Source: Heterodontus francisci | Taxonomy: Eukaryota | Assembly (NCBI RefSeq): GCF_036365525.1 | Contig: NC_090384.1 | Coordinates: forward strand, 50,599,192-50,663,191 | Length of the DNA stretch: 64,000 bases | Reading direction: 5' to 3' | Shown here: piece by piece, positions 1 to 60,654 of the stretch | Position numbering within the stretch: position 1 is the first letter of the stretch | Layout: each line of letters opens with the position of its first letter | Position numbers and translations under genes: made by a program | Notes under the pieces: model-generated | The model's input: the letters and a program-made list of their open reading frames with translations, nothing else | Told to the model about the DNA's origin: nothing | The model's database searches: none

Positions 1-119
1 ATGAGAGTTTTGGGGTGGGGGGGGGGGGGTTGTGACCACTGTACAGTCCTTGTGGAGATGAAGTGCCATCATCAGGGCCTGTTTCAGTGCTGTTTCTCTA
101 AGTCTAAAAAAGTCTAAAT
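1..119 (+). mobile_element. 3' tail of HE1-like SINE or CR1 (truncated by window start)
   Basis: gggcctgtttcagtgctgtttctctaagtctaaa resembles the 3' end of the SINE at 53141-53488. Confidence 0.5.
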
Positions 120-139
120 CACACTGAGGGCATCCTTCA

Positions 140-1400
140 TCGTGTTGTGTGGTAATATCACTGTGCTAAATGGGATAGATTCAGAACAGATCTAACAGCT
201 CAAATCTGGGTATCCATGAGGTGCTGTGGGCATCAGCAGCAGCAGAATTGTATTTCCCCACAATATGTAACCACATGACCTTATTCTGCCATTATCATCA
301 AGCTAGGCGACCAACCCTGGTTCAATGAGGAGTGCTAGCAGCAGCACCAGGCACACCTAAAAATGAGGAGCCAACTTGGTGAAGTTGCAACATAGGACTA
401 CATGCATGCTAAACAGTGGAAGCAGCATGCTATAGACAGAGCTAAGTGATCCTGCAATCAACGAATCGGATCAGAGCTCTGCTGTCCTACAATATCCAGT
501 AGTGAATGGTGATGGACAATTAAACAACTAACGGGTGAATGAGTCTCCACGAGCATCCCCATTTTCAGTGACAGCAGAGCCCCAAAACATGTTGAAAAGA
601 CAAGGCTGAAGCATTGACGACCATCGTCAACCAGAAGTGCTGAGTGGATGATCCATCTCAGCCTCCCTCTTATTTCCTCACTATCACAAAAGCCAATCTT
701 CAGCCAATACGATTCACTCCACGTGATATCAAAGAAAAGACTGAGTGCACTGGTTATAGCAAAGGCTGTGGGCCCCGACAACATCCCAGCTGTAGTGCTG
801 AAGACTTCTGCTCCAGAACTAGCCGCATCTCTAGCCAAGCTGTTCCTACAACACTAACAGGACAAATCCAATCCAGCCAATTACTGCCCCATCAGTGTAA
901 TCTCATTCATCTGCAAAGTGATGGAAGTTGTGGTCGACAGTGCTATCAAGAAGCACTTACTCACCAATATCTTGCTCACTGATATAAAAGCAAAATACTG
1001 CGGATGCTGGAAATCTGAAACAAAAACAAGAAATGCTGGATTCACTCAGCAGGTCTGGCAGCATCTGTGGAAAGAGAAGCAGAGTTAACGTTTCGGGTCA
1101 GTGACCCTTCTTCGGAAGAAGGGTCACTGACCCGAAACGTTAACTCTGCTTCTCTTTCCACAGATGCTGCCAGACCTGCTGAGTGAATCCAGCATTTCTT
1201 GTTTTTGTGTCTTGCTCACTGATGCTCAGTCAGGTTTCTGCCAGGACCGCTCAGCTCCGGAGCTCACTACAACCTTGGTCCAAACATGAACAAAAGAGCT
1301 GAATTCCTGAAGTGATGTGAGAGTGGTTGACCTTGACATCAAAGCAGCATTTGATTGAGTTTGGCATCAAGGAACCCTAACAAAATTGAGGTCAATGAGA
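140..1400 (+). mobile_element. Degenerate LINE family B ORF2 fragment, interrupted by the PLE hairpin at 984-1209
   Basis: Colinear with ~35845-36955 (PIRFTPRDIK, KAVGPDNIPAVVLKT, ttgacatcaaagcagcatttga); many stops and frameshifts. Confidence 0.85.
984..1209. mobile_element. Fold-back (palindromic) insertion of the Penelope-like element 3' end
   Basis: Arms 1020-1113 and 1115-1208 are exact reverse complements; sequence matches PLE 3' ends at 39300-39397 and 57206-57340; flanked by direct repeat TCTTGCTCACTGAT (970-983, 1210-1223). Confidence 0.92.
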
Positions 1401-1669
1401 ATAAGAAGAATGGGCACGGAAGTAAAGAAAGAGCGATTAGGAGGGGGTGATCAAAACCTCAAAGCCATGGGTTTTAAAGAGAGTTTTATTGGAGAGCAGT
1501 GAAGAGGCAAAGGGTTTGGGAAGGAAATTACAGAGAGTAGAGTCAACAGTTTGGTCGGGGGTGGGGAGGCAGGTGTGTGGGGGGGTGGGGGTGGTGGTTG
1601 CGGTGGGGGGGTGGTGGGGGAGGGTGATTGTTCAATGCACAAAAGGCTGTAGTCAAGTAAAGAAAGAAT

Positions 1670-34939: not shown

Positions 34940-37915
34940 CTAATGTCCTTTAGGGAAGGAAATCTGCTGTCCTTACCTGGTCTGGCCTACATGTGACTCC
35001 AGACCCACAGCAATGTGGTTAACTCTTATATGCCCTCTGAAATGGCCTAGCAAGCCACTCAGTTGTACCTGACATTGATGAGGTCAATTAAAGGGAATGA
35101 AACCGGACGGACTACCCGGCATCGACCTAGGCACTGGAAACAACAACGGCAAACCCAGCCCTGTCGACCCTGCAAAGTCCTCCTTACTAATATCTCGGGG
35201 CTTGTGCCAAACTTGGGAGAGCTGTCCCACAGACTAGTCAAGCAACAGCCTGACATAGTCATACTCACGGAATCATACGTGACAGACAATGTCCCAGATA
35301 CTGCCATCACCATCCCCGGGTATGTCATGTCCCACGGGCAGGACAGACCCACCAGAGGTGGTGGCACAGTGGTATACAGTAGGGAGGGAGTTGCCCTGGG
35401 AGTCCTCAACATTGACTCTGGACCCCATGAAGTCTCATGGCATCAGGTCAAACATGGGCAAGGTAACCTCCTACTGATTACCACCTACCGCCCTCCCTCA
35501 GCTGATGACTCAGTGCTCCTCCATGTTGAACACCACTTGGAGGAAGCACTGAGGGTGGTAAGGGCACAAAATGTACTCTGGGTGGGGGACTTCAATGCCC
35601 ATCACCAAGAGTGGCTCGGTAGCACCACTACTGATCGAGCTGGCCGAGTCCTAAAGGACATAGTTGCTAGACTGGGTATGCGGCAGGTGGTGAGGGAACC
35701 AACACGAGGTAAAAACATACTTGACCTCATCCTCACCAATCTGCCTGCCGCAGATGCTTCTGTCCATGACTGTATTGGTAGGGGTGACCACCACACAGTC
35801 CTTGTGGAGACCAAGTCCCGCCTTCACTTTGAGGTTACCCTCCATCGTGTTGTGTGGCACTACCACCGTGCTAAATGGGATAGCTTTCGAACAGATCTAG
35901 CAATGCAAACCTGGTCATCCATGAGGCGCTCTGGGCCATCAGCAGCAGCAAAATTGTATTCATCCACAATCTGTAAGCTCATGGCCTGGCATATCCCCCA
36001 CTCTACCAGTACCATCAAGCCAGGAGACCAACCCTGGTTCAATGAAGAGTGCAGGAGGGCATGCCAGGAGCAGCACCAGGCATACCTCAAAATGAGGTGT
36101 CAACCTGGTGAAGCTACAACACAGGACTATCTGCGTGCCAAACTGCGTAAGCAGCATACGATAGACAGAGCTAAGCAATCCCATAACCAACGGATCAGAT
36201 CTAAGCTCTGCAGTCCTGCCACATCCAGCCGTGAATGGTGGTGGACAATTGAACAACTAACTGGAGGAGGAGGCTCCAAAAATATCTCCATCCTCAATGA
36301 TGGGGGAGCCCAGCACATCAGTGTGAAAGATAAGGTTGAAGCATTTGCAACAATCTTCAGCCAGAAGTGCCAAGTTGATGATCCATCTCGGCCTCCTCCT
36401 GAAGTCCCCAGCATCACAGATGCCAGACTTCAGCCAATTCGATTCACTCCGCGTGATATCAAGAAACGACTGAAGGCACTGGATACTGCAAAAGCTATGG
36501 GCCCTGACAATATTCCAACAATAGTACTGAAGACCTGTGCTCCAGAACTTGCCACGACCCTAGCCAAGCTGTTCCAGTACAGCTACAACACTGGCATCTA
36601 CCCTGCAATGTGGAAAATTGCCCAGGTATGTCCTGTACACAAAAAGCAGGGCAAGTCCAACCCGGCCAATTACCGCCCCATCGGCTTACTCTCAATCATC
36701 AATAAAGTGATGGAAGGTGTCACCAACAGTGCCATCAAGCGGCACTTGCTTAGCAATAACCTGCTCAGTGACGCTCAGTTTGGGTTCTGCCAGGGCCACT
36801 CAGCTCCTGACCTCATTACAGCCTTGGTTCAAACATGGACAAAAGAGCTGATCTCAAGAGGTGAGGTGAGAGTGACTGCCCTTGACATCAAGGCAGCATT
36901 TGACCGAGTATGGCATCAAGGAGCCCTAGCAAAACTGAGGACAATGGAAATCAAGGGGAAAACCCTCTGTTTGCTGGAGTCATACCTAGCGCAAAGGAAG
37001 ATGGTTGTGGTTGTTGGAGGTCAATCATCTGAGCTCCAGGACATCACTGCAGGAGTTCCTCAGGTTAGTGTCCTAGGCCCAACCATCTTCAGCTGCTTCA
37101 TCAATCACCTTCCTTCAATCATAAGGTTGGAAGTGGGGATGTTTACGGATGATTGCACAATGTTCAGCACCATTCGTGACTCCTCAGATACTGAAGCAAT
37201 CCGTGTCGAAATGCAGCAAGACCTGGACAATAGCCAGGCTTGGGCTGATAAGTGGCAAGTAACATTCGCGCCACACACGTGCCAGGCAATGACCATCTCA
37301 AGCAAGAGAGAACCAAACCATCTCCCCTTGACATTCAACAGCATTACCATCGCTGAATCCCCCACTATCAACATCCTAGGGGCCACCATTGACCAGAAAC
37401 TGAACAGGAATAGCCATCTAAATACCGTGGCTACAAGAGCAGGTCAGGGGCTAGGAATCCTGAGACAAGTAACTCACCTCCTGACTCACCAAAGCCTGTC
37501 TACCATCTACAAGGCACAAGTCAGGAGTGTGTGGAATACTCTCCATTTGCCTGGATGGGTGCAGCTCCAACAGCACTCAAGAAGCTCGACACCATCCAGG
37601 ACAAAGCAGCCCGCTTGAATGGCACCCCACCTACAAACATTCACTCCCTCCACCACCGACGCATAGTGGCAGCATTGACAAGATGCACTGCAGCAATGCA
37701 CCAAGGCTCCTTAGACAGCACCTTCCAAACCCGTGACCTTGACCACCTCGAAGGACAAGGGCAGCAAATGCATGGGAACATCACCACCTGCAAGTTCCCC
37801 TCCAAGTCACACACCATCCTGACTTGGAACTATATCGCCGTTCCTTCACTGTTGCTGGGTCAAAATCCTGGAACTCCCTTCCTAACCGCACTGTGGGTAT
37901 ACCTTTTGGTTTGGA
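34940..37915 (+). mobile_element. LINE family B (CR1/L2-group non-LTR retrotransposon), near full-length, 3' tail missing
   Basis: Short 5' leader, then a single APE-RT ORF; frameshifted C-terminus 37531-37900; followed directly by the PLE copy. Confidence 0.9.
35063..37618 (+). CDS. Apurinic-like endonuclease plus reverse transcriptase (851 aa, frameshift near 37530)
   Basis: APE motifs ILTES, YRPP, GDFNAH, ILDLILTN, GDH; RT motifs GPDNIP, NYRPIGLL, DIKAAFDRVWH, GVPQVSVLGP, FTDD. Confidence 0.9.
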   Translation: MYLTLMRSIKGNETGRTTRHRPRHWKQQRQTQPCRPCKVLLTNISGLVPNLGELSHRLVKQQPDIVILTESYVTDNVPDTAITIPGYVMSHGQDRPTRGGGTVVYSREGVALGVLNIDSGPHEVSWHQVKHGQGNLLLITTYRPPSADDSVLLHVEHHLEEALRVVRAQNVLWVGDFNAHHQEWLGSTTTDRAGRVLKDIVARLGMRQVVREPTRGKNILDLILTNLPAADASVHDCIGRGDHHTVLVETKSRLHFEVTLHRVVWHYHRAKWDSFRTDLAMQTWSSMRRSGPSAAAKLYSSTICKLMAWHIPHSTSTIKPGDQPWFNEECRRACQEQHQAYLKMRCQPGEATTQDYLRAKLRKQHTIDRAKQSHNQRIRSKLCSPATSSREWWWTIEQLTGGGGSKNISILNDGGAQHISVKDKVEAFATIFSQKCQVDDPSRPPPEVPSITDARLQPIRFTPRDIKKRLKALDTAKAMGPDNIPTIVLKTCAPELATTLAKLFQYSYNTGIYPAMWKIAQVCPVHKKQGKSNPANYRPIGLLSIINKVMEGVTNSAIKRHLLSNNLLSDAQFGFCQGHSAPDLITALVQTWTKELISRGEVRVTALDIKAAFDRVWHQGALAKLRTMEIKGKTLCLLESYLAQRKMVVVVGGQSSELQDITAGVPQVSVLGPTIFSCFINHLPSIIRLEVGMFTDDCTMFSTIRDSSDTEAIRVEMQQDLDNSQAWADKWQVTFAPHTCQAMTISSKREPNHLPLTFNSITIAESPTINILGATIDQKLNRNSHLNTVATRAGQGLGILRQVTHLLTHQSLSTIYKAQVRSVWNTLHLPGWVQLQQHSRSSTPSRTKQPA

Positions 37916-38020
37916 AGGTGCTTTGCTTCCAATTTCCACCCTTCTCTCACCTTTACATGGTCCATCTCTGACACTTCCCTTCCCTTCCTCGACTTCTCTG
38001 TCTCCATCTCTGGGGATAGG

Positions 38021-38929
38021 TTGTCTACCAATATCTATTATAAGCCCACTGACTCCCACAGCTACCTCGACTACACTTCTTCACACCCTACCTCCTGTAA
38101 GGACTCCATTCCATTCTCCCAGTTTCTCCGTCTCCGACGCATCTGCTCTGAAGATGCTACCTTCCATGACGGTGCTTCTGATATGGCCTCCTTTTTCCTC
38201 AACCGAGGATTTCCCCCCACTGTGGTTGACAGGGCCCTCAACCGTGTCCGACCCATTCCCCGCACCTCTACCCTCACCCCTTCCCCTCCCTCCCAGAACC
38301 GTGACAGGGTTCCCCTTGTCCTCACTTTTCATCCCACCAGCCTCCATATCCAAAGGATCATCCTCCGCCATTTTCGCCACCTCCAGCGTGATGCCACTAC
38401 CAGTCGCATCTTCCCCTCCCTTCCCCTGTCAGCATTCCGAAGGGATCGTTCCCTCCGCGACACCCTGGTCCACTCCTCCATTACCCCCACCACCTCGTCC
38501 CCGTCCCAGGGCACCTTCCCTTGCAATCGCAGGAGGTGTAACACCTGCCCATTTACCTCCTCTCTCCTCACTATCCCAGGCCCCAAACACTCCTTTCAGG
38601 TGAAGCAGCGATTTACTTGTACTTCTTTCAATGTAGTATACTGTATTCGCTGCTCACAGTGTGGTCTCCTCTACATTGGGGAGACCAAGCGCAGACTGGG
38701 TGACCGCTTTGCGGAACATCTCCGCTCAGTCCGCAAGCAGGACCCTGAGCTTCCGGTTGCTTGCCATTTCAACACTCCCCCCTGCTCTCATGCTCACATC
38801 TCTGTCCTGGGATTGCTGCAGTGTTCCAGTGAACATCAACGCAAGCTCGAGGAACAGCATCTCATCTACCGATTAGGCACACTACAGCCTGCCGGACTGA
38901 ACATTGAGTTCAATAATTTCAGAGCATGA
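38021..38929 (+). CDS. PLE RT C-terminus plus GIY-YIG endonuclease (open to the stop codon)
   Basis: VVYCIRCSQCGLLYIGETKRRLGDRFAEH...KLEEQHLIYRLGTLQPAGLN. Confidence 0.88.
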   Translation: MSTNIYYKPTDSHSYLDYTSSHPTSCKDSIPFSQFLRLRRICSEDATFHDGASDMASFFLNRGFPPTVVDRALNRVRPIPRTSTLTPSPPSQNRDRVPLVLTFHPTSLHIQRIILRHFRHLQRDATTSRIFPSLPLSAFRRDRSLRDTLVHSSITPTTSSPSQGTFPCNRRRCNTCPFTSSLLTIPGPKHSFQVKQRFTCTSFNVVYCIRCSQCGLLYIGETKRRLGDRFAEHLRSVRKQDPELPVACHFNTPPCSHAHISVLGLLQCSSEHQRKLEEQHLIYRLGTLQPAGLNIEFNNFRA

Positions 38930-39296
38930 CAGCCCCCCACTTTACTTTCATTTTTAGTCATTTTTAGTTAATTTTTCTTCCTTTTTTTTGCATTCCTTTT
39001 TACATTTTTTGCATTTATTTCATTTCATGTTAGTTTGTTCAGTTTGCTTACCCACTGTTTTTTTCAGGTTGTTTTTCTTCAGGTTTGCACTTGCTGATGT
39101 TCTATATTCAGTATATTCACACCTAATCTGTACTAATGCTTTGTCTTTCAAAACACCATTAACATATTGTTTGCCTTTGCTCCGTGACCTTTTGGTCAGC
39201 TATGTGGCCTGGTCCAATCTGCACCTTCTCCTTTGTTATCTCTTGCCCAACCCCCACCTCACTTGTTTATAATCTGTGACTTTTCTAATATTTGTC

Positions 39297-39333
39297 AGTT
39301 CCGAAGAAGGGTCACTGACCCGAAACGTTAACT
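39297..39333 (+). ncRNA. Minimal type-I hammerhead motif, CCGAAGA core variant
   Basis: AGTT-CCGAAGA-A-GGGTC-act-GACCC-GAAAC-GTT-AACT. Confidence 0.65.
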
Positions 39334-39524
39334 CTGCTTCTCTTTCCACAGATGCTGCCAGACCTGCTGAGTGAATCCAGCATTTCTTGTTTTTGTTCCA
39401 ATTTTTATCCTGCTGTTTTGAGACCACTTGACTGGCTGTTTGATTCTTCTTCCCAGAACCTTCAACAGCTGCAGAACTTAAAAGGCAAAGCCCAACAGAT
39501 TGTGGATCAATGACCTGAAACACT

Positions 39525-54083: not shown

Positions 54084-54229
54084 NNNNNNNNNNNNNNNNN
54101 NNNNNNNNNNNNNNNNNNNNNNNNNNNNNNNNNNNNNNNNNNNNNNNNNNNNNNNNNNNNNNNNNNNNNNNNNNNNNNNNNNNNNNNNNNNNNNNNNNNN
54201 NNNNNNNNNNNNNNNNNNNNNNNNNNNNN
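54084..54229. other. Assembly gap (146 N)
   Basis: Run of N. Confidence 1.
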
Positions 54230-57200: not shown

Positions 57201-57303
57201 ATAAATAAAAGCAAAATACTGCGGATGCTGGAAATCTGAAATAAAAACAAGAAATGCTGGAACCACTCAGCAGGTCTGGCAGCATCTGTGGAAAGAGAAG
57301 CAG

Positions 57304-57340
57304 AGTTAACGTTTCGGGTCAGTGACCCTTCTTCAGAACT
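57304..57340 (-). ncRNA. Minimal type-I hammerhead ribozyme motif, canonical core
   Basis: AGTT-CTGAAGA-A-GGGTC-act-GACCC-GAAAC-GTT^AACT; palindromic ACGT stem III. Confidence 0.75.
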
Positions 57341-57748
57341 GACAAATATTAGTAAAGTCACAGGTTATAAGCAAGTGAGGTGGGGGTGGGGCAAGAGATA
57401 ACAAAGGAGGTCTAGATTGGACCAGGCCACATAGCTGACCAAAAGGTCACGGAGCAAAGGCAAACAATATGTTAATGGTGTGTTGAAAGACAAAGCATTA
57501 GTATAGATTAGGTGTTAATACATTGAATATTGAACAGCAGCAAGTGCAAACCTGAAAAAAAACAGTGTGTAAGCAAACTGAACTAACTAAGATGAAATGA
57601 AATAAATGCAAAAAAAAGATAGTAAAAAATGTAAAAAAGAATGTAAAAAAAAAGGAAGAAAAAATAACTAAAAATGAAAGTAAAATGGGGGGCTGTCATG
57701 CTCTGAAATTATTGAACTCAATGTTCAGTCCGGCAGGCTGTAGTGTGC

Positions 57749-58858
57749 CTAATCGGTAAATGAGATGCTGTTCCTCGAGTTTGCGTTGATGTTCACTGGA
57801 ACACTGCAGCAATCCCAGGACAGAGATGTGAGCATGAGAGCAGGGGGAATGTTGAAATGGCAAGCAACCGGAAGCTCAGGGTCCTGCTTGCGGACTGAGC
57901 GGAGATGTTCCGCAAAGCGGTCACCCAGTCTGCGCTTGGTCTCCCCAATGTAGAGGAGACCACACTGTGAGCAGCGAATACAGTATACTACATTGAAAGA
58001 AGTACAAGTAAATTGCTGCTTCACCTGAAAGGAGTGTTTGGGGCCTGGGATAGTGAGGAGAGAGGAGGTAAATGGGCAGGTATTACACCTCCTGCGATTG
58101 CAGGGGAAGGTGCCATGGGACGGGGACGAGGTGGTGGGGGTAATGGAGGAGTGGACCAGGGTGTCGCGGAGGGAACAATCCCTTCGGAATGCTGACAGGG
58201 GAAGGGAGGGGAAGATGCGACTGGTAGTGGCATCACGCTGGAGGTGGCGGAAATGGCGGAGGATGATCCTTTGGATATGGAGGCTGGTGGGGTGAAAAGT
58301 GAGGACAAGGGGAACCCTGTCACGGTTCTGGGAGGGAGGGGAAGGGGTGAGGGTAGAGGTGCGGGGAATGGGCCGGACACGGTTGAGGGCCCTGTCAACC
58401 ACAGTGGGGGGAAATCCTCGGTTGAGGAAAAAGGAGGCCATATCAGAAGCACCGTCATGGAAGGTAGCATCATCAGAGCATATGCGTCGGAGACGGAGAA
58501 ACTGGGAGAATGGAATGGAGTCCTTACAGGAGGTAGGGTGTGAAGAAATGTAGTCGAGGTAGCTGTGGGAGTCGGTGGGCTTATAATGGATGTTAGTAGA
58601 CAACCTATCCCCAGAGATGGAGACAGAGAAGTCGAGGAAGGGAAGGGAAGTGTCAGAGATGGACCATGTAAAGGTGAGAGAAGGGTGGAAATTGGAAGCA
58701 AAGTTGATAAAGTTTTCCAGTTCGGGGCGGGAGCAGGAAACGGCACCGATACAGTCATCAATGTACCGGAAAAAGAGTTGGGGGAGGGGGCCTGAGTAGG
58801 ACTGGAACAAAGAATGCTCGACATATCCCACAAAAAGACAGGCATAACTAGGACCCAT
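57749..58858 (-). pseudogene. PLE RT plus GIY-YIG ORF segment, frameshifted at both ends
   Basis: RYIDD; near-identical to 38021-38929 but with a 1-nt deletion in the C-run near 57845 and a frameshift near 58860. Confidence 0.85.
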
Positions 58859-60654
58859 GCGGTACCCATAGCGACACCTTTTACTTGAAGGAAGTGCGTG
58901 GAGTTGAAGGAGAAGTTGTTCAATGTGAGAACAAGTTCAGCCAGGCGGAGGAGGGTGGTGGTGGATGGGGACTGGTTGGGCCTCTGTTGCAGGAAGAAGC
59001 GGAGAGCCCTCAAACCATGCTGGTGGGGGATGGAGGTGTAGAGCGATTGGACTTCCATAGTGAAGAGGAGGCGGTTGGGACCAGGAAACTGGAAATTGTC
59101 AAAATGACGTAGGGCGTCAGAAGAGTCACGGATGGATGTAGGTCAGAAGAAACTGGACCAGCGGAGAAAAGATAGAGTCTAGATAGGAAGAAATAAGTTC
59201 AGTGGGGCAGGAGCAGGCTGACACAATCGGTCTGCCGGGACAGTCCCGTATTATAGTAGTGAAATAAAGGATCAGTACTCCTGCATGTTTGGATACAATC
59301 TCCTGTTTCAGCAGCACACCTAATATCCTTTTGGGTTTTATGTTAGGTCTTTCATTTAGGTTTAGCATCACTGATCGCTTTTGTAAGTGGATCTTGTGCC
59401 CACTATGAACCTGATCGTGCCTTTATCTTCCCATATATAGATAAATGTAACGAGGCCAAGGAATTAAACAGAGAACACTTGTCACTATACATTGGCTTAC
59501 TGGAATGTGCTCCCATATGGTTTTCTTCATTCCACAGATTGAATCTATACTCTGACAAACCAGGCCTCAGACTACAAGCAACAGCAAATTGATCAGGTAA
59601 ATGAACAGTATTCAGCATATTTACAGAGCTACACATTTTGCTGTGCTATATTATATATAAGTAGTTATATTATATATAATATATATACAACTCCCTGAGC
59701 TATCTCTAAACATACAGTGGTGGCAGTTTACTTCTAATGAGTCAAAACTTTATCAGTGAGTTATTGATTTAGCATAGTCTTTCTGGTACTGGCAAACTAA
59801 TTGCCAATCTAGGTGCCCATAGTCCCAAACAAGATCACATGAGAAACTTCAAGTCACAAAGTAGCCCATGAAAATACTACGGCCAACCATTTACCCTGCC
59901 TCTTCTCACAGGTTTGATATACAGTTGTTAATCAGAACTATCATCTCAGGCTGGCTTGATTCTTTGATCTGTGCCAGATAATTTGAACTACTTGAACTGA
60001 GAAGATGTCAGAACATACAACATTAGAAAATTACCTAATTATGTAGATTGATTGCTATTTCCAAAGTTCAAACACAGCTAATGATTATATGACAAAGATG
60101 AAACTTCTATGGGCTAGTCGATTGAAAATGAAATGCTTTTGTCACTTAAGCAATTAATTTATTAAACTCTCTTTCATTTGATAGGATTCAAAACACAAAT
60201 GCCCATAATTGATTTTGATCTGAAAAACTGGAATGCATCATACAGAATCAACTGATCGAAATCAATGTGAATCCTTTTATGGACTGTGGCCAAGAGTAAA
60301 GAATCAAATTGATAAACTAAAGACATACAGAAGTGCTTAATTTATGTCACAATGTACGCAACTTGATTCGCATCCTTGTATCTCTGCCTAGGCCAAGGAG
60401 TTAGAGGACAGCTAGTACATTCCTCTGTCTCTAGCTTCAAGTGAACATTGACGCAACATCACTATCAATGCTATTGATGCTCTGCAGCTTCACAGATTAT
60501 TATATTGCAGATGCTACATGAAAAAAAGTAATTCAAAATTGCTTTTATTTCAGATATTTGTCTATGTGTCAAACCCAGCCATTAAGAATGACGTGCAAGC
60601 TGTTTTCTGAAAATCAAGTCTCCATTTTACACCCGAATGTAACAATACTACTAA

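Follow-up and report, generated by a model that had tools for sequence, protein, structure and literature searches.

Insertions of EN+ Penelope-like elements (PLEs) are described as carrying an inverted 5′-truncated copy, a tail of 30–40 bp on one side only, a TSD, and a palindromic junction (Fig. 2 of PMC8557442, with the pertinent descriptions in PMC3846280, PMC2377424, and PMC8969392). How the inverted repeats and one-sided tails originate is presented as an open problem in the portion of PMC8557442 that deals with them. One example is Pen2a_Av of the rotifer Adineta vaga, which, in the account of its insertions in PMC3846280, has head-to-head pLTR ends, a one-sided tail, a TSD, an overlapping palindromic junction, and both TATA and initiator-like motifs. 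The same account interprets the palindromes as the result of self-priming on an antisense template.

Biochemical data exist for PAc, a Poseidon element from Anolis. In the relevant in vitro experiments of PMC11167929, the protein cleaves and extends both strands, is predicted to form a dimer, and uses two internal reverse transcription (RT) start sites that bound the tail, with uncleaved RNA as the template and hammerhead cleavage being dispensable. That part of the study does not assign the two start sites to the opposite ends of an insertion, and the strands did not differ in the start site used. Minimal type I hammerheads of PLEs occur as opposite-strand pairs 100–700 bp apart and as many lone motifs, according to the survey portion of PMC4209133. 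Hammerheads are also found in non-LTR retrozymes, which, as outlined in bioRxiv 10.64898/2026.07.22.740005, are head-to-tail tandem units that each bear a complete type I hammerhead and are thought to move as circles. The nearest mechanism is, in outline, L1 twin priming, wherein cDNA synthesis from both nicks leaves truncated copies in inverted orientation, flanked by a TSD and meeting at a microhomology. The second priming event of L1 is internal and takes place at variable positions, and there is hardly any overlap between the two segments.

Here we describe a fold-back insert near the start of a 64,000-nucleotide stretch of the Heterodontus francisci genome (hereafter, the window). It shares with Pen2a_Av the head-to-head pLTR ends, one-sided tail, TSD, and overlapping palindromic junction, and its parent element likewise has TATA-like and initiator-like motifs. 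Unlike Pen2a_Av and D. virilis Penelope as portrayed in these sources, the stubs examined here lack the ORF-bearing body, contain copies of only ~100–136 nt, and share one fixed end site. The element resembles PAc in its apparent two-strand cleavage and extension, in putative start sites that bound the tail, in a likely dimer, and in the probable use of uncleaved RNA as the template; it departs from the PAc results described above in that each pair carries one of each start site, with a stagger of 14–15 bp and a symmetric target motif. In contrast to L1, the two putative start sites do not vary in position, and each cDNA would copy the same +1..+100 segment to give a palindrome. The mirror-image structure itself is already known for EN+ PLEs; the fixed ends and the counts given below suggest a mechanism. 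We consider it likely, if well short of certain, that the insert, a promoter-less PLE stub in which copies of the opening ~100 and ~136 bases of the predicted transcript stand head to head, arose when both ends of the target primed reverse transcription (two-ended, or twin, priming). A search of the open literature returned no paper offering a two-ended, run-off-at-start reading for PLEs.

Anatomy of the insert and its parent element

With +1 defined as the A of a TCAGTT motif in the element, the following features are found in the window:

333–1402, plus strand: host, a degenerate LINE-like repeat split by the insertion (paralogue at ~36,060–36,950)
970–983, plus strand: left TSD copy, 14 bp, 100% identical to the right copy; the target is single in the paralogue
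984–1019, minus strand: 36-nt one-sided PLE "tail," element +136..+101; its outer end is the putative first RT start site
1020–1113, minus strand: tailed arm, element +100..+7; 984–1117 is identical to +3..+136 of an intact copy (L138)
1083–1117, minus strand: truncated minimal type I hammerhead motif (+3..+37), from the sequence, the description of minimal hammerheads given in PMC4209133, and folds
1111–1117, no strand: junction, where both arms overlap by 7 nt at element +3..+9; the same junction occurs 314 times in the genome
1115–1208, plus strand: tail-less arm, element +7..+100; its outer end is the putative second RT start site
1209, plus strand: one additional G; the element has T here (+101), and the TSD does not account for it either
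1210–1223, plus strand: right TSD copy, 14 bp, direct repeat of the left copy
37921–39396, plus strand: second 5′-truncated copy of the PLE family, ending tail-less at ~+99
57205–58936, minus strand: longer 5′-truncated copy of the same PLE family, with its tailed end at 57,205 and RT/EN ORF fragments

The two 94-bp arms are exact inverted repeats around G1114. The junction holds a 3-bp micro-palindrome whose mismatched center is G1114 (+6), and it stops 2 nt from +1, the predicted start site; the tail-less arm corresponds to +3..+100 with G replacing C at +6. The first-pass annotation had recognized the palindrome with its single central G, the 14-bp TSD, and the lack of an ORF (none of at least 200 aa overlaps the palindrome), and our reading of the hammerhead core on either strand agrees with its own. 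It had called the structure a 189-bp insertion, which holds for the palindrome; the insert between the TSDs is 226 bp (984–1209), comprising in addition the unpaired 36-nt tail on one side and G1209 on the other, both of which had been omitted. The insert has the makeup of an EN+ PLE complex insertion, with an inverted 5′-truncated neighbor, a one-sided tail whose 36 nt lie within the usual 30–40 bp, and a 14-bp TSD.

On the minus strand, the hammerhead motif retains the core and stem II, and its helix I is missing the first two bases. The motif is mirrored on the plus strand at 1111–1145, where core position 4 is G; most copies have C at this position. An Rfam scan of the insert gave no hammerhead match, and weak matches to mir-350 and SNORA69, below gathering score, were set aside as reflecting the hairpin only. 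In its short helix I, extra base before stem II, and palindromic 15.2–16.2, the motif is like both the minimal hammerheads of PLEs and those of non-LTR retrozymes, as these are characterized in the relevant parts of PMC4209133 and bioRxiv 10.64898/2026.07.22.740005. Identity with a retrozyme, as delineated there, was rejected: the stub is a single head-to-head pair with a clipped helix I, and its motif is buried in a long stem.

The host repeat resumes across the insert and aligns to its paralogue at 36,670–36,874, which carries the target once, with 69 of 89 and 94 of 113 flanking positions identical. This paralogue sits inside an 855-aa ORF (35,051–37,618), a LINE-like RT open frame. The window also contains a run of N at 54,084–54,229.

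The parent element was found at L138 (C1:23220500–23230400), where three tandem PLE units follow one another with a period of 3,290 bp. Two of these have intact 916-aa ORFs, and the third is cut by the locus edge. The ORF matches Pfam RVT_1 (E = 6e-6) and, in its C-terminal part, GIY-YIG (E = 2.5e-4), both just below the curated cut-offs. It carries upstream of the RT core a DKG motif (PADKGG), a feature named for PLEs in the pertinent part of PMC8557442, and a C-x4-C-x2-C motif precedes the GIY-YIG domain, which fits what the same part describes for the Neptune clade. Judged from its sequence, the parent is a young EN+ Penelope-like element, combining a single RT plus C-terminal GIY-YIG ORF, the DKG motif, a tandem pLTR arrangement, and a minimal type I hammerhead; it may be of Neptune type.

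Each parent unit has, in order, a TATA-like box at -30..-25, the minimal type I hammerhead at +1..+37, the tail at +101..+136, and then the ORF, whereas the PAc ORF, as depicted in PMC11167929, starts inside the hammerhead. This hammerhead is a predicted ribozyme, read from the sequence and fold of +1..+40, in which helix I begins exactly at +1 and cleavage is predicted after +33. The tailed side of the window insert matches L138 +3..+136 at 134 of 134 nt, which bears out the earlier proposal that the structure is built only from the ribozyme-bearing PLE end. The longer copy at 57205–58936 continues through the TATA-like box and +1. A pyrimidine-rich CAG just 5′ of the parent ATG resembles a splice acceptor, so the RT start sites at the 5′ end may lie within an intron. 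In element RNA +53..+129 (window 991–1067, minus strand), a long stem is predicted in which the tail pairs back onto upstream sequence. A CAGCA/UGCUG helix appears twice in this fold, nested, one before each putative RT start site; these could be twin protein-binding sites, with a folding z-score (-0.18) that is not significant.

Recurrence, copy ends, and target sites

The exact 39-nt junction has 314 matches in the genome, while its reversed control has none. A 17-nt anchor in stem II occurs 56,422 times, and 3,644 inverted anchor pairs lie within 30 nt at the start-site window, as opposed to 44 inverted junctions in a like window just upstream of +1 and 346 just downstream. The upstream junction rate is ~26-fold lower than the start-site rate when scaled by the 17,856 copies that have the upstream motif next to the anchor versus all 56,422. 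Thus, the genome search for inverted pairs that had been suggested for this locus returns a recurrent structure with strongly non-random axes. Nearby are stronger micro-palindromes, namely stem II (6-bp arms) and two 3-bp even palindromes (+28 and +31). These do not attract the axis as the +1 zone does, given the 346 downstream junctions, a count by which stem II axes are partly covered.

The samples used below are first-listed places (C1–C7) rather than random draws. Two of the 100 listed exact-junction places are absent from the set, and L032 and L034, which duplicate L001 and L002, were left out. An inverted neighbor is present for 48 of 100 sampled anchor hits.

The outer ends of the copies are of two kinds. 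Among 100 anchor hits on C1, 38 copies have their 3′ ends at +97..103 and 45 at +133..141. Exactly one arm is tailed in 95 of the 99 exact-junction loci drawn from the matches listed, with no tail in four and two tails in none; in the general junction set, 49 of 50 loci have exactly one tail and again none has two. Tails on both arms were seen only in 2 of 48 inverted rows, which represent one long-long locus (L092). For the short arm, the end falls within +97..+104 in 68 of the 99 loci, the place where lone copies end too, and about a quarter of short arms stop well short of +97. Most exact-junction loci (84 of 99) have their own TSD of 13–16 bp. Longer inverted pairs at L073, L077–L080, L092, L101, and L132 have random inner ends and are mostly one-tailed (L092 having two tails), which suggests that the same mechanism operates from downstream start sites.

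The 8 bases outside the TSD show alike, reverse-complement preferences on the two sides. This dyad symmetry (r = 0.91) was measured in 122 of 144 loci, 22 being excluded as having no tail or no TSD of at least 12 bp, and it compares with -0.10 for the far-flank control (position-permutation p = 0.0002). Such a symmetric motif is expected of two like nuclease domains.

The 5′ ends of 100 consecutive anchor hits on C1, a sample in which both arms of a locus are counted if both hold the anchor and ends beyond +13 are invisible, fall largely at one place. Specifically, 53 lie at +1..+13 (31 of them at +1..+3), 6 at -1..-3, 6 at -6..-26, and none at -27..-139, and 35 copies run at least 140 nt upstream. 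Of 58 short copies, 32 have an inverted neighbor (itself short in 29 cases), 25 are alone, and one has a direct neighbor. Because lone copies end at the same place as paired ones, the stop is a property of the template.

Matches that begin at +1 number 7,015, compared with 1,288 at +34, the hammerhead cut, and 854 at the control position +37. Ribozyme cleavage was rejected as the origin of the 5′ ends, as there is no marked excess at +34, and 19 of the 100 rows listed for +34 come from one local cluster. In that cluster (C1:235.84–236.11 Mb), 19 matches to a variant of the +34 motif probably represent a locally amplified repeat. A read-through variant subfamily accounts for 7 of 30 loci checked.

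The TATA-like and initiator-like motifs match the canonical spacing of the consensus, so +1 is likely to be a Pol II transcription start. The TATA-like box is no better conserved than neighboring sequence in the parent family, which is young. TATA and Inr motifs are noted for the rotifer pLTR in the passage of PMC3846280 concerned with it, and the D. virilis Penelope pLTR, which is TATA-less, has promoter activity according to the corresponding data in PMC2377424. Of 37 ends at +1/+2, 20 are preceded by G, against 9 of 30 at +4..+12 (p = 0.04); the difference, confounded by microhomology and templated inserts, would be at best a weak cap-G signature.

The first 50 junction loci show 44 junction types, including overlaps, blunt joins, and templated inserts, and the commonest single type is the micro-palindrome (5 of 50). 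The reconstructed target sites (n = 122) contain just three look-alike pairs, which are diverged and apparently within multicopy repeats, and the exact junction is present in several subfamily haplotypes and in both center orientations. The many junction types and the scarcity of shared targets indicate that the structure is made anew at each insertion, rather than copied from a master hairpin. Older subfamily copies (~86% identical) at L059:2012–2178, L078:2824–2958, and L080:480–617 and 2501–2634 also span about +1..+136 or form inverted pairs, and thus the stop at +1 is old. L178 and L038 hold two independent fold-back stubs, located at the equivalent position of what looks, on comparison by eye with window 57,458–57,490, like the 3′ UTR of the PLE itself. 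One PLE stub, together with its flanks, is present three times at ~12-kb spacing at L268–L270 (C1:22.61–22.64 Mb), as a tandem segmental duplication.

Proposed two-ended priming and its alternatives

The observed anatomy, recurrence, arm ends, one-tail rule, TSD of 14–15 bp, and symmetric target are the basis on which we infer the following steps. A tandem source copy would be transcribed from the TATA-like box and the initiator-like +1, the base with which helix I also begins. A PLE dimer would nick both strands ~14 bp apart, and, with one RNA or RNAs of one source locus as the template, cDNA synthesis would start from the two 3′-OH ends at the internal sites +136 and ~+100. Priming would occur at the start-site copy next to the RNA 5′ end, not at the copy 3.3 kb downstream, and both cDNAs would run off at or near +1. 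After trimming, their 3′ ends would be linked either at a microhomology or by templated end-joining. If they anneal via the 3-bp micro-palindrome at +3..+9, a central G–G mismatch would remain, and repair in either direction would give a perfect palindrome and may produce the near-even ratio of center bases reported below. For a single RNA to serve twice as the template over +1..+100, strand displacement would be required, which counts against this scheme.

A stronger form of this proposal is that two-ended priming is obligate for PLEs: a dimer with a symmetric ~14-bp stagger would use +136 and ~+100, one per target end, on a single RNA, with 5′-proximal initiation in the pLTR and run-off at the cap. 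We regard the chances of this version as evenly balanced.

One alternative retains the two-ended mechanism and takes +1 as an RNA processing site, created either by GUC cleavage in an alternative dimeric hammerhead fold or by a splice acceptor. Position +1 comes directly after a GUC triplet, is the base at which helix I starts, and overlaps an AG that resembles a splice acceptor, and an intron end maps to the helix I 5′ end in D. virilis in the example given in PMC4209133. However, the AG of the supposed acceptor is retained in ends at +1 and +2 (20 of 100), and no upstream exon is common to lone copies where they meet the target DNA. In one subfamily, GTC is replaced by GCT and the TATA/initiator-like spacing is preserved, although its truncated copies cannot be distinguished, its downstream haplotypes being common to others. 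Together with the modest G excess before +1/+2 ends, these observations make a processing site unlikely, and a transcription start remains our preferred reading of +1.

The first-pass annotation had favored stalling of the cDNA at the hammerhead and self-priming by snap-back. Spelled out, a single tailed cDNA would fold at the TTC/GAA micro-palindrome and serve as its own template, up to its joining with the second nick. This snap-back model predicts that the center base always follows the tailed arm and that the copy never holds bases the first cDNA lacked. Across 95 listed loci, the center base goes with the tailed arm in 53 and with the tail-less arm in 42 (p = 0.30 versus 50:50). A hand tally of 49 tailed loci finds the tail-less arm extending closer to the RNA 5′ end in 19, the tailed arm in 20, and no difference in 10; in 14, the tail-less arm holds at least 3 nt that are absent from the tailed arm. 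A self-copy also has no reason to end at ~+100, where lone copies end as well. Moreover, a hairpin loop of 1 nt cannot close.

Stalling fares no better. A reverse transcriptase halted by the ribozyme would be expected to end on the 3′ side of the hammerhead, before having unwound it, whereas the cDNAs traverse the whole motif and stop at the far (5′) edge, as lone copies do, with no pile at the cut.

Two findings fit snap-back. First, its micro-palindrome junction is the commonest type. Second, the arms nearly always share subfamily and rare variants: they are identical in 84 of 144 loci, differ at 94 of 9,582 positions overall, and are discordant in just 2 of 127 cases at each of the subfamily sites +79 (~67 expected if independent) and +78 (~40 expected). 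This concordance rules out two random RNAs as templates and implies one RNA, one source locus, or one arm copied from the other, and is thus predicted equally by snap-back. Spacer inversion can occur later in palindromes, and the center flips could in part come from it. Barring frequent spacer inversion and deletion after insertion, snap-back is largely refuted for about half of the loci, and we judge it improbable as the general explanation.

A further possibility is that the palindromes arise by self-priming on antisense RNA, as proposed for the head-to-head palindromic junctions of rotifers in the pertinent section of PMC3846280, or that finished palindromes are re-mobilized as a non-autonomous hairpin family, as had been suggested for this locus. 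Recurrence of the exact junction 314 times would be in keeping with re-mobilization. A MITE- or retrozyme-like family was nevertheless rejected, given the diversity of junctions, the near absence of shared targets, the spread of one junction over several haplotypes and both center orientations, and stubs that lack the upstream TATA-like, promoter-like box. Both outer ends, in addition, fit the putative RT start sites of the element and a symmetric target motif. We therefore rate this pair of explanations as quite improbable, and the counts favor two separately primed cDNAs over the self-priming interpretation in PMC3846280.

Finally, the palindrome is not due to chance, and an assembly or chimera artifact at 970–1223 is very unlikely, indeed close to negligible: although four public read runs gave no read or contig spanning 700–1500 (other copies dominated, and no empty allele was seen), the insert has a clean TSD and an asymmetric tail, the host repeat is collinear with its paralogue across a single insertion, and hundreds of like structures have TSDs of their own, with no match to the reversed junction.

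Fate of the stubs and implications for PLE biology

The window locus is an ordinary dead-end by-product, one of ~3,600 such stubs in the genome. With the TATA-like box absent, the stub was likely dead on arrival. The hairpin predicted for a stub transcript has a folding energy of about -189 kcal/mol on either strand, and because both hammerhead motifs would be buried in it and helix I is clipped, ribozyme activity is unlikely. Read-through transcription from either strand would give a 94-bp perfect duplex, which could then be a substrate for siRNA production or ADAR, as the first-pass annotation had supposed. The genome is seeded with at least 3,644 near-perfect hairpin templates of ~190 bp, which are candidates for relevance to double-stranded RNA sensing, silencing, and genome stability.

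The value of this locus lies in the population evidence it opens for two-ended PLE priming, which is testable in the existing in vitro PLE system. Minimal stubs present by the thousands keep both ends and the junction visible, such that the question of how PLEs form their inverted repeats and one-sided tails becomes one of counts. The one-tail rule, the symmetry of the centers, the symmetric target, and the hard stop at +1 all point to two-ended priming. If priming is indeed two-ended and obligate, a single rule would account for tails on one side only, inverted pLTRs, solitary pLTR stubs, and perfect ~190-bp palindromes in their thousands in each genome, and the transcription start of an element could be mapped from DNA alone. 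Two-ended copying to the predicted start of the RNA, followed by joining, would thus explain a long-puzzling feature of PLEs, their inverted repeats and one-sided tails.
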